Shown here: positions 1,022-2,876 of the stretch, in pieces
Layout: the number at the start of each line of letters is the position of its first letter
Position numbering within the stretch: position 1 is the first letter of the stretch
Source of the DNA: Candidatus Omnitrophota bacterium
GTDB taxonomy: Bacteria; Omnitrophota; Gorgyraeia; 2-01-FULL-45-10
NCBI GenBank assembly: GCA_022703295.1
Contig: JAKLDX010000001.1
Location: forward strand, 1 to 37,600
Length of the DNA stretch: 37,600 bases
Direction of reading: 5' to 3'
Position numbers and translations under genes: made by a program
The notes under the pieces: model-generated
Databases searched by the model: none
What the model was told of the DNA's origin: nothing
The model's input: the letters and a program-made list of their open reading frames with translations, nothing else

Positions 1022-1774
1022 ATGTACCCGTATGATTTCTTTACACAATATCGCGTAGATCAATTGGTAGATCAAGTATTTGTAGGAATGTGGTTTGATC
1101 AAGAGCATAAACCACGTTATGATAACGTAATCGTTAAGGCTATAAAAAACGCTAACCTAAAACCTTATCGCGTTGATCAGCCAGTTTCAGGAGACTCAAT
1201 CCCAATAAATATATTACAGGGAATATTGAATTCGAAAATTGTGTTATTCGATGTTTCATATATAACATCCGAGATTTCGATTTCACCCTCTGTTAAAAAG
1301 AGGTTTCGTAATGCAAACGTTATGTACGAATTAGGGCTAGCGCATGCATGGAGACTACCGGAAGAAATTATTGTAATAAGAGATGATGAAGATTCTCTTC
1401 CCTTTGATGTCACCACATTCAGAGCTCATAAATATGATTTTAACAACGTAGATAGTTCAATAAACCAATTATCAAAAGTTATAACGGATTCTTTCTCGGA
1501 AATTAATAGAGCTAAGTCATTAATGGTAGAAAGGGCAGCGAAATCGCTAGATTCTCGATGCATTAATTTTATTTTTAGTAACCGAGGAAGATATTTCAGC
1601 GAAACTAAGTATGATCCTGTCACCGCGAATATTATCAACAGGCTTCTTGATCTCAGAATTTTGTGGATAGACACTTCTGGCGGTGGGGGATCCTATGCTT
1701 ACCATTGGACAGAACTTGGAAGAGATGTAATTAAATATCATAAGATAGAGCCATGCCCTAAAAACGAGTCATAA
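1022..1774 (+). CDS. TIR-like / nucleoside 2-deoxyribosyltransferase-like (Rossmannoid) domain protein with a C-terminal wHTH-like region
   Basis: 250-aa ORF with GGAG 7 nt upstream of the ATG. The N-terminal strand QVFVGMWF, then SKIVLFDVS, then RNANVMYELGLAHA match the R-x-NV-[FY]-E-L-G pattern of TIR-like (COG4271/PF10137-type) and NDT-like domains. The C-terminal ~80 aa (ANIINRLLDLRILWID..GGGGSYAYHWTELGRDVIKY) look like helix plus wing. AT-rich codon usage. Motif recognition only. Confidence 0.6.
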   Translation: MYPYDFFTQYRVDQLVDQVFVGMWFDQEHKPRYDNVIVKAIKNANLKPYRVDQPVSGDSIPINILQGILNSKIVLFDVSYITSEISISPSVKKRFRNANVMYELGLAHAWRLPEEIIVIRDDEDSLPFDVTTFRAHKYDFNNVDSSINQLSKVITDSFSEINRAKSLMVERAAKSLDSRCINFIFSNRGRYFSETKYDPVTANIINRLLDLRILWIDTSGGGGSYAYHWTELGRDVIKYHKIEPCPKNES

Positions 1775-1775
1775 C

Positions 1776-2876
1776 ATGGTAAAACCTCCAATTAAGCTTG
1801 CGGTAGGAAGAATACAAGAATATAACAAAAACACGTTTATAAAGCGCCTATTGAATATTGGCATTGTGGGTCTTATAATCGTTTTGTTTTTATTTTTTGT
1901 GTACAAACTTATACCAAATCCATATTTATGTTATGGCTATAAGCCAATAAAGATAGGTAAACAACCGATCGAGTTTGACTGGGCAGGGGATTCTTATCAA
2001 TGTCGTTTTGGTATTGCAAATTCTGGAGTTTTTGACGTAAAAAATCCTATACTGCAAATATACTTTATTGACGGTGCTGATGTTAAGCCTGTTTCAAATA
2101 ATACAGAGTGGCAAAGGAATGATGAAGCAAATTATTTTTGGTCGAAAAATATTACTATTCATGGTGGAATCAAAAGCGTTGATTTGGCGGAACGTGCTCA
2201 AGCTATAAACGTCAAATTTAACAATAACGGTTTAAATAGAATAAAATATATTATAACATCGAACGGAATACAAAAAAGAGGCACGATAAATGTTATTAAT
2301 TCACATGGATCCGATAAAGTGTCCCAAGATGCAATTGAAATAGCAAAAAAGACAGAATGGCCATATTTTAAACTTAGGTTAAATTTTGATAACAATCAAG
2401 ATGAAATACAGATTTATAATGAAGGAGGAAAATTTAGAGAGCTGAATACCGAGGTGTATTTATTTTGGAGTATAACGTCTGATAAAACTTTGCTTAACCC
2501 AAAGGATATAGCGGTTCTAAACTATTACAATCTTAGCTCCATAGATTCACTTCTTTCGGGTAGTAAGCCCATAACAATATCTGCTGCAGACCCTGCAAAG
2601 GCGACAGACCTCATTGATGGGTTTAAAAAATTGGCAAAGGAAAAAGGTTTTTTAGCATTTATATCAGCAAAGAGATATGTTCGCATGCAATATAAAGATA
2701 TATATGATGAATCGCACGATGATTTTTACAGCCTAGATAAGATTGGGGGTAAGAAGATGTCAAAAAATGAAGCCACAGAAATGATGAAAATATATAATCA
2801 GGCAAGAGATCAGAATATGGTTATAGATATGCTAACCACATCATCGGAAATTTTATATGAGAAATGGCAACATTAG
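1776..2876 (+). CDS. Single-pass (N-in) membrane protein with a ~320-aa domain of unknown function
   Basis: 366-aa ORF starting 1 nt after the stop of the upstream gene. A basic N-terminus is followed by the hydrophobic helix LLNIGIVGLIIVLFLFFVYKLI. The remainder has no motif I recognise; the first part looks beta-rich. Confidence 0.6.
   Translation: MVKPPIKLAVGRIQEYNKNTFIKRLLNIGIVGLIIVLFLFFVYKLIPNPYLCYGYKPIKIGKQPIEFDWAGDSYQCRFGIANSGVFDVKNPILQIYFIDGADVKPVSNNTEWQRNDEANYFWSKNITIHGGIKSVDLAERAQAINVKFNNNGLNRIKYIITSNGIQKRGTINVINSHGSDKVSQDAIEIAKKTEWPYFKLRLNFDNNQDEIQIYNEGGKFRELNTEVYLFWSITSDKTLLNPKDIAVLNYYNLSSIDSLLSGSKPITISAADPAKATDLIDGFKKLAKEKGFLAFISAKRYVRMQYKDIYDESHDDFYSLDKIGGKKMSKNEATEMMKIYNQARDQNMVIDMLTTSSEILYEKWQH

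Follow-up and report, generated by a model that had tools for sequence, protein, structure and literature searches.

How a TIR-like protein and a single-pass membrane protein encoded one nucleotide apart might act together is the question raised by positions 1022-2876 of a 37,600-nt stretch of DNA from a Candidatus Omnitrophota bacterium (assembly GCA_022703295.1, contig JAKLDX010000001.1), the whole of which is called the window below. TIR-type NAD+-hydrolysing enzymes (NADases) are established bacterial immune effectors, and those described are triggered by cytoplasmic cues such as cyclic nucleotides, phage proteins or nucleic acids. Our analysis suggests that the first gene of the pair, ORF1, encodes the effector and the second, ORF2, an input, anchor or restraint module, and that the two are probably a new form of TIR-based abortive infection, receptor-like in design, to which two uncharacterised families of membrane module are attached. 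Should the membrane protein serve as the input, infection would be sensed at the envelope, in an architecture parallel to that of animal Toll-like receptors. Three unannotated families are defined by this work: the TIR-winged-helix proteins represented by ORF1, which are widespread in bacteria and archaea, and the domains A and B of ORF2.

Both genes lie on the forward strand. ORF1 (1022-1774) starts with ATG, ends with a TAA stop at 1772-1774 and encodes 250 aa made up of a TIR-like domain, a long helix and a winged-helix-like C-terminal domain, while ORF2 (1776-2876, ATG start and TAG stop) encodes the 366-aa membrane partner. At the junction (...TCA TAA c ATG GTA...; stop to start codon, 1772-1778) a single spacer base separates the two codons, and translational coupling is probable. 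Upstream of the ORF1 ATG we found GGAG at a distance of 8 nt, and upstream of ORF2 a weak GAG only, which fits a dependence of ORF2 translation on coupling with ORF1. An earlier reading of this DNA, made from the letters alone and called the sequence-only reading here, had placed the two genes at these coordinates with a 1-nt gap, in exact agreement with the ORF listing, and all the motifs that it cited were found: VFVGMWF (aa 19-25), RNANVMYELGLAHA (aa 96-109) and DTSGGGGSYAYHWTELGRDVIKY (aa 218-240).

The TIR domain of ORF1

To the AlphaFold2 (AF2) model of ORF1 (pLDDT 86, pTM 0.78) we owe the assignment of a flavodoxin-like domain at aa 16-140 (1067-1441, forward strand), which in this model is a CAP12-type TIR fold. 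In a Foldseek search of the PDB, ranks 1-8 were all taken by TIR-STING structures (9lmr and 7un8, E 4e-6 to 8e-5; up to 1e-4 for all top hits), below which came nucleoside 2-deoxyribosyltransferases (NDTs, E about 1e-3) and the TIR domains of TLR, SARM1, BtpA and SPARTA. An N-terminal domain of PF10137 type, TIR- or NDT-like and with a conserved Glu, had been proposed from the sequence, with a fold of another kind named as the outcome that would speak against it; AF2 and Foldseek placed the domain with TIR-STING, and the Glu in question, E103, aligned with E84 of SfSTING.

At least 114 proteins, of about 250-300 aa, make up the family of ORF1. We obtained 240 matches in GTDB species-representative genomes, spread over many bacterial and archaeal phyla, and of 600 candidate stretches that we examined in JGI metagenomes at least 323 were confirmed; viral contigs contributed about 120 relatives consisting of the TIR domain only (phrog_3634). 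Across an alignment of 57 family members, the columns M23, N99, V100, E103, G105, A107, R111, F128 and D129 were invariant. The motif quoted from ORF1 is therefore more than a chance likeness, because it is the invariant core of this family of at least 114 proteins.

The predicted active-site residues are N99 (1316-1318), E103 (1328-1330) and D129 (1406-1408), which together span 1316-1408 on the forward strand and are all invariant in the alignment. When the family profile was aligned to 7un8, using a numbering offset of +8 for this PDB chain that was derived from the R-x-N-x-x-x-E spacing, these three residues fell on N80, E84 and D110 of SfSTING. The active site of SfSTING comprises N80, the catalytic E84 and D110, and D110 comes from the TIR on the opposite side of the active dimer (PMC9402430). 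In ORF1 the Asn precedes the Glu of helix alpha-C by four residues and the Asp follows that Glu by 26, and conservation of the trans-acting Asp suggests that ORF1 would be activated through TIR-TIR assembly.

Profile libraries placed the family in the same neighbourhood at lower significance. ORF1 itself had no Pfam or NCBIfam match, with nothing for PF10137 at E<=1 and nothing for the NDT family PF05014, whose structures also rank under TIR-STING in Foldseek; hits to TumE (E 0.026) and DUF4860 (E 0.077) were dismissed as chance, and PADLOC returned a weak match to 'Effector TIR' (E 0.0066). When the 57 members were scanned singly, PF10137 (CAP12/Pycsar TIR) was matched by 33, all below threshold (best E 9.5e-5), TIR_2 by 10, PF05014 by nine (best E 0.0088) and the PADLOC CBASS 'Effector TIR' models by 13. 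DUF4062 (PF13271) was matched by none of the 57, and the PADLOC models for Thoeris ThsA and ThsB gave no match for ORF1, ORF2 or the ORF1 family. From the fold and the profiles taken together, ORF1 is most likely a NAD+-hydrolysing enzyme, and its nearest relatives are effector NADases and not signal-making TIRs of the ThsB type.

The C-terminal domain of ORF1

A long connecting helix (aa 143-174, 1448-1543; assigned by DSSP on the AF2 model) leads from the TIR domain to a putative winged-helix-like auxiliary domain (aa 178-239, 1553-1738, forward strand), which is delimited by the AF2 model and weak profiles and contains the wing motif Y-x-[YH]-x-T-x-x-G. The last ~60 residues of the model fold as helix-helix-hairpin-helix, and every profile match obtained with the whole protein or with the C-terminus alone was to a winged-helix family, all of them short of significance (E 0.03-0.9): AdcR/MarR at 0.03-0.05, DnaD at 0.08 and PadR at 0.3-0.9, with eS25 also returned. 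The wing residues Y227, T and G233 are kept throughout the ORF1 family, whether a partner is present or absent. This evidence is weak but convergent, and of the winged helix-turn-helix (wHTH) C-terminus claimed by the sequence-only reading it makes a plausible assignment, consistent with the secondary-structure pattern of the model and with the nature of all matches, although sub-threshold matches leave it unproven.

The membrane protein ORF2

Four segments can be distinguished in ORF2, all on the forward strand. A basic, predicted cytoplasmic tail (aa 1-24, 1776-1847) with the motif P-[VI]-[KR]-L-x-x-G-x-I-K...R-x-T is followed by the transmembrane (TM) helix and its juxtamembrane motif (aa 25-56, 1848-1943), the latter being an invariant YK-x-IPNPYL-x-YGY. 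Domain A (aa 47-175, 1914-2300) is beta-rich, with seven predicted strands, probably extracytoplasmic and very rare, and domain B (aa 176-366, 2301-2873) is of alpha+beta type and bears the motif RYVRxxYKDIYDExHDD. The TM helix is the only strongly hydrophobic segment of the protein (aa 25-46, Kyte-Doolittle mean 2.77), so the single N-terminal helix after a basic stretch that had been described earlier is confirmed.

No family match was obtained for ORF2 in Pfam, NCBIfam, PADLOC or PHROGs, in keeping with the earlier failure to place any motif in the remainder of the protein. Its AF2 model had an overall pLDDT of 76, with about 95 in domain B, and fold searches with this model gave nothing convincing (best PDB match E 4e-3 with a TM-score of 0.23; best BFVD match E 5e-3). 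Neither family nor fold searches linked ORF2 to a known envelope-biogenesis protein, and profile and fold searches revealed no SLOG, Macro, SAVED or cyclic-nucleotide-binding (CNB)-type ligand domain and no SIR2. A likeness to Kir channels in Foldseek was set aside as a generic resemblance of the type 'TM helix plus beta-sandwich'. Also rejected was a phage origin of ORF2, for which there was no tblastn match in 50,697 phage genomes, no PHROG and no relative in IMG/VR.

The two outer domains differ in abundance: an exhaustive search of 1.84 billion proteins recovered only 3 representative clusters for domain A, and domain B is represented by about 60 clusters of ~240-aa proteins, each with a basic N-terminus and TM helix of its own. 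Clustered at 50% identity, the domain B family shows the motif RYVRLxYKDxxxExHDDxY (members P0116-P0121, P0124 and P0127-P0184). Stand-alone TM-B genes adjoin type ISP/IIG restriction-modification (R-M) and island genes at two loci (L084, 5986-6678; L168, 2235-2963), another lies at L169 (1646-2326), and at L168 further small single-pass membrane proteins are found beside the TM-B gene.

Charge bias around the helix suggests that ORF2 is a type II protein with the N-terminus inside, the C-terminus outside and its bulk beyond the cytoplasm. In the domain B family, Lys and Arg were more numerous in the N-flank than in the C-flank in 42 of 52 proteins (means 3.65 vs 1.71), and within the group that combines the tail, TM helix and domain A an N-in orientation was favoured in 7 of 9. 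With this predicted layout ORF2 would resemble a type II membrane receptor or anchor and would be poorly suited as a nucleotide-gated pore, because it has one helix and about 24 predicted cytoplasmic residues.

Conservation of the gene pair

The pair was found at seven independent loci (the window, L081, L082, L165, L166, L167 and L171-173), at which the ORF1 homologues show about 59-85% identity and the next gene carries the same tail and TM helix. The junction is +1 nt in the window and -4 nt in L081, both with partners containing domains A and B behind the tail and TM helix (366 and 368 aa); it is +3 nt in L082, -1 nt in L166 and -1 nt in L167, where the partner stops after domain A (178, 179 and 176 aa, respectively) and where the last of these pairs adjoins hsdRMS, a type I R-M locus. 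The L165 partner (junction +3 nt) joins the tail and TM helix to an unrelated domain (P0157), and L171-173 (+24 nt) encodes a divergent tail-TM-A protein (P0125). The pairing reported by the sequence-only reading is thus real and tightly coupled, recurs at six loci outside the window and is confined to the closest clade.

Two features of these loci bear on the role of the partner. Identity to the window proteins is 59% for ORF1 and 74% for ORF2 in L081, and 83% and 59% in L082; because high identity in one gene does not go with high identity in the other, ORF1 and ORF2 recombine independently. The inside of the partner, that is the tail, TM helix and juxtamembrane motif, is constant, the tail motif being kept in 7/7 split-type partners, and the ectodomain is swapped between A, A+B and the unrelated domain of P0157. 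Such variation outside the membrane, over a part inside it that stays constant, is what a sensor would be expected to show. The six other loci have entirely different neighbours (R-M, helix-turn-helix and resolvase genes), and no glycosylation genes recur.

We examined 160 loci that encode more distant relatives of ORF1 (30-50% identity), 80 of them in genomes and 80 in metagenomes. Searches by tblastn, and by hmmsearch with models of domains A and B, detected neither domain at any of these loci, and we therefore reject the idea that the partner is conserved across the whole ORF1 family. Nor did another recurrent neighbour emerge, since clustering of 959 neighbouring ORFs returned only integrases, hsdM/hsdR and a few local groups. 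The distant relatives stand alone beside integrases, beside hsdM/hsdR, beside reverse-transcriptase and CBASS genes (L001) or inserted among housekeeping genes (L175). At L001 (2741-9488; Omnitrophica WOR_2 contig MHGF01000026.1) a 49%-identical ORF1 relative without a membrane partner sits in a clear defence island, flanked by a 754-aa reverse-transcriptase gene and by a CBASS-like operon of patatin, SMODS cyclase and SEC-C-motif protein. Patatin was considered as a recurrent partner and rejected: the corresponding neighbour at L055 is a DUF5677 protein, and the patatin of L001 belongs to its CBASS operon.

Fusions of the membrane module

In two proteins, P0122 and P0123, the TM helix and domain A are fused through a linker to the C-terminal side of a DUF4062 domain, which passes PF13271 with 34 and 31.4 bits, respectively (cutoff 24.7). 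DUF4062 (= NIR) is a TIR-like NADase effector, as shown experimentally in Avs2, Vulcan, Vesta, Swarozyc and Evangelion. ORF1 has no detectable relation to it, hhalign of the 57-sequence alignment against P0122 giving a probability of 0.2, so the TM-A module is attached in cis to an NADase domain different from that of ORF1. Because the NADase must face the cytoplasm, domain A would lie outside in these fusions. The tail motif is missing from them, as would be expected if the tail docks ORF1 in trans.

Including the fusions, the TM-domain-A module is tied to three TIR-superfamily families: the CAP12-type in trans, DUF4062 in cis and, as an adjacent gene, a TIR_2 protein. The last of these is encoded at L171 (2-1297, forward strand) directly upstream of the ORF1-like/TM-A pair, and in it a domain that we call X stands N-terminal to a bona fide TIR_2 (43.8 bits). 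Domain X also occurs alone, separated by a 1-nt gap from a DUF4062-TM-A gene, at L174 (61-795) and L083 (1-381), both on the forward strand. It is unannotated, helical and about 180 aa long (244 aa in the stand-alone form) and is missing from the window. Domain X may add a third component to such systems.

A split-receptor model and its rivals

Our favoured reading, which we advance tentatively, is that ORF1-ORF2 is a two-gene anti-phage module of the abortive-infection type with a split-receptor design. ORF1 would act as a cytoplasmic CAP12-type TIR effector that hydrolyses NAD+ and carries a winged-helix-like auxiliary domain, and the conserved tail and TM helix of ORF2 would dock it or hold it at the membrane. 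Domains A and B would provide the input, either by sensing an infection event at the level of the envelope or merely by positioning the enzyme. A change in the state of ORF2, by clustering or release, would lead to oligomerisation of the TIR domains over their dimer interface, where D129 would be supplied to the active site of the neighbour, and the resulting switch to NAD+ depletion would halt phage growth. More speculatively, and with doubt, we extend this scheme to the TM-domain-A module in general, with or without domain B, as a prokaryotic transmembrane receptor that would couple phage detection outside the cytoplasm to a TIR-superfamily NADase, either fused (DUF4062-TM-A) or docked (ORF1). 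Were this true, the TM-A receptor would match Toll-like-receptor signalling in its logic, as a bacterial counterpart, and it would fire before or at genome entry.

Several observations weigh against the split-receptor model. The pairing is limited to a narrow clade, and about 160 relatives are without such a partner, by which ORF2 may be dispensable. ORF1 itself falls below every Pfam TIR threshold, and its loop after strand 1 (G-M-W-F / A-M-P-F) is unlike that of SfSTING, where S10 touches the substrate. The model of domain A is of low confidence (pLDDT 40-60), and neither domain A nor domain B resembled known ligand-binding or cell-wall-binding folds in the PDB or BFVD. The topology of ORF2 draws on the positive-inside rule and two fusion proteins, and the margin of Lys and Arg in its own flanks is small (3 vs 2). 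A disulfide argument for an extracytoplasmic domain A had to be given up, the two Cys not being strictly kept: L166 lacks one and P0125 the other.

The rival that we take most seriously, which we nonetheless consider somewhat unlikely, is that ORF1 is self-contained like Swarozyc and Evangelion. Its wHTH-like domain, on sensing a phage protein or nucleic acid inside the cytoplasm, would trigger the NADase, and ORF2 would be an accessory tether or a negative regulator that limits autotoxicity. Most family members do stand alone in defence or mobile contexts and the wing motif is kept family-wide irrespective of a partner; moreover, the HTH/winged AUX domain of Swarozyc, which binds the phage portal, activates the NADase, and the operon partners VstB and MisB are dispensable for defence. 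Exchange of the partner ectodomain over a constant tail and TM helix is, however, more typical of an input module, and the DUF4062-TM-A fusions keep domain A without any wHTH, so that domain A contributes by itself. This rival overlaps with the split-receptor model and differs from it only in which part does the sensing. A further departure is the scheme of the sequence-only reading, in which ORF1 senses through its wHTH or makes a nucleotide signal and ORF2 is a membrane-disrupting killer; this would resemble the design of Thoeris, Pycsar or CBASS. It would account for the close linkage between a membrane protein and an enzyme of TIR type and for retention of the pair at seven loci, and Pycsar/Pucsar, CBASS and type II Metis commonly include a TM effector. 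We judge it less likely and on the whole improbable, the present evidence giving this division of labour no support: ORF2 has one TM helix, whereas the known TM effectors of these systems have several (three in MisC, for example), and its ~24 cytoplasmic residues, lacking any SLOG, Macro, SAVED or CNB-type ligand domain, provide no evident site for a nucleotide signal. Fusion of TM-A behind a DUF4062 NADase puts the enzyme inside and domain A outside, and were domain A part of a killer these fusions would contain two effectors in one protein. Most members of the ORF1 family have no partner to kill on their behalf, the closest relatives of ORF1 are effector NADases that deplete NAD+, and PADLOC gave no ThsA/ThsB match.

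A non-immune role was also weighed, with ORF1 as an NDT-like N-glycosidase or transferase or a wHTH regulator, and ORF2 as an envelope protein tied to glycosylation genes. The NDT fold matches (E about 1e-3), the contact of nine of the 57 family members with PF05014 and the PMT_2, GT2 and GT87 genes immediately downstream of the pair would be in line with it. We regard it as unlikely, and very much so, since the best fold and sequence matches of ORF1 are TIR NADases, the equivalent of D110, which is specific to SfSTING, is kept, and the pair sits in the low-GC insert, apart from the glycosylation cluster. The neighbours of the pair differ entirely at the other six loci, and glycosylation genes do not recur.

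Comparison with known systems

The best structure and sequence matches of the ORF1 N-domain are CAP12/TIR-STING and PycTIR (PF10137; 7un8, 9lmr and 8jsj). CAP12/TIR-STING shares with ORF1 the N-x-x-x-E on helix alpha-C, the trans Asp and the order of an N-terminal TIR and a C-terminal regulatory domain, but the C-domain of ORF1 is predicted to be winged-helix-like and not STING, SAVED or cyclic-nucleotide-binding. In contrast to CAP12 and PycTIR, no cyclase is encoded in the islet of the window, the partner is a membrane protein instead of a CD-NTase or Pycsar cyclase, and ORF1 remains below the Pfam threshold.

In its layout ORF1 would be closer to Swarozyc (KpSwz), Evangelion (Eva01) and VstA. 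The first two are small proteins in which a TIR-like NADase at the N-terminus precedes an auxiliary domain that varies. They consist of a DUF4062/NIR NADase plus the auxiliary domain and are mostly single-gene systems in defence islands (bioRxiv 10.64898/2026.05.01.722283; 10.64898/2026.06.25.731849). Most members of the ORF1 family are likewise single genes in defence contexts. ORF1 nevertheless belongs to another family of the TIR superfamily, failing the PF13271 test, and in the clade of the window it has an obligatorily adjacent membrane partner, whereas the word 'membrane' is absent from both preprints.

The pair can also be compared with Vesta (VstA, with NIR, and VstB) and Metis (MisA and MisB), two-gene operons in which a small protein that degrades NAD+ and bears an additional domain is strongly linked to its partner gene. 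VstB and MisB, however, are soluble phosphatases that remove the trigger, and ORF2 is a single-pass membrane protein without an enzyme signature; in Metis, moreover, MisA is a metallophosphatase and not a TIR, and the type II system has the TM effector MisC. Thoeris (ThsB TIR and ThsA) also has two genes and one TIR protein, but differs in that PADLOC finds no ThsA/ThsB match here and ORF2 is without SIR2, Macro or SLOG.

P0122 and P0123 follow the same topological logic as animal Toll-like receptors, with a TIR-like domain inside, one TM helix and a beta-rich part outside, which is an analogy only, and the pair of the window would be a split version of this layout. There is no homology of ectodomains (no leucine-rich repeats), the orientation is reversed, since a type II membrane protein here has its TIR-like domain at the N-terminus, and the TIR here is expected to be an enzyme and not a scaffold. 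A non-exhaustive literature search found no prokaryotic membrane-anchored or transmembrane TIR and no DUF4062-transmembrane system.

Genomic setting

The window is a complete 37.6-kb contig of a metagenome-assembled genome. In it the pair lies, together with a third gene, ORF3, in a ~3-kb segment of low GC content (1000-4000; 28-42% GC vs ~47% in the flanks), which we read as a small insert of foreign DNA, a defence-type islet. A tRNA-Val(GAC) gene (230-306, forward strand) lies 0.7 kb upstream. The islet contains no integrase, and no repeat of the 3' end of the tRNA-Val was found. Chromosomal genes follow directly downstream, including PMT_2, GT2 and GT87 for glycosylation and others of housekeeping type. 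Upstream of ORF1, a sigma-70-like promoter match (TTGACT-17-TAGCAT, 892-920, forward strand) is a match to consensus only, the number of such sites not exceeding the shuffled expectation.

ORF3 (3013-3870, forward strand) encodes a DUF2971/PDC-S31 protein of 285 aa from the TTG at 3013, or 277 aa from the likely start ATG at 3037. It matches PF11185 with 42.8 bits (cutoff 22), PADLOC PDC-S31 with E 3.6e-37 over residues 7-279, and phrog_1762. Aristaios, a validated single-gene abortive-infection system, is a DUF2971 protein, and prediction places this domain with the DarT-like ADP-ribosyltransferases. ORF3 is missing from the other pair loci and hence lies outside the conserved unit, and it would be a separate candidate defence gene. 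The islet would then hold two candidate defence modules, both NAD+-using. The defence setting that had been suspected from the sequence gains support from the PDC-S31 gene and from the relatives of ORF1 that lie beside R-M genes or beside reverse-transcriptase and CBASS genes.

Some smaller features surround the insert. Three palindromic hairpins of ~25 nt (GGGGGAAACC-nnn-GGTTTCCCCC) at 62-86, 422-446 and 766-790, ~350 nt apart, occupy the non-coding DNA that surrounds the tRNA gene and continues downstream of it, where terminator-like hairpins are also present at 547-577 and 673-706; the set looks like a REP-like or terminator array. A 35-nt direct repeat (3-37 and 193-227, 77% identity), of which the second copy is directly upstream of tRNA-Val, suggests the leader of a second, cut-off tRNA gene at the start of the contig. 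Around the insert there is a 19-nt inverted repeat (600-618 and 3901-3919, 84% complementary), which we do not read as the termini of an element: each arm is a small GTCCC/GGGAC hairpin, and the likeness of the two may be coincidental. Farther downstream, at 28030-36098, genes for Mrp/complex-I-like antiporter subunits and a subunit of the NiFe-hydrogenase/49-kDa type suggest a group-4 membrane-bound hydrogenase or an Mrp-type complex. These hydrogenase/Mrp genes, together with CstA, an amino-acid permease and many glycosyltransferases, form the ordinary chromosomal context of the window.

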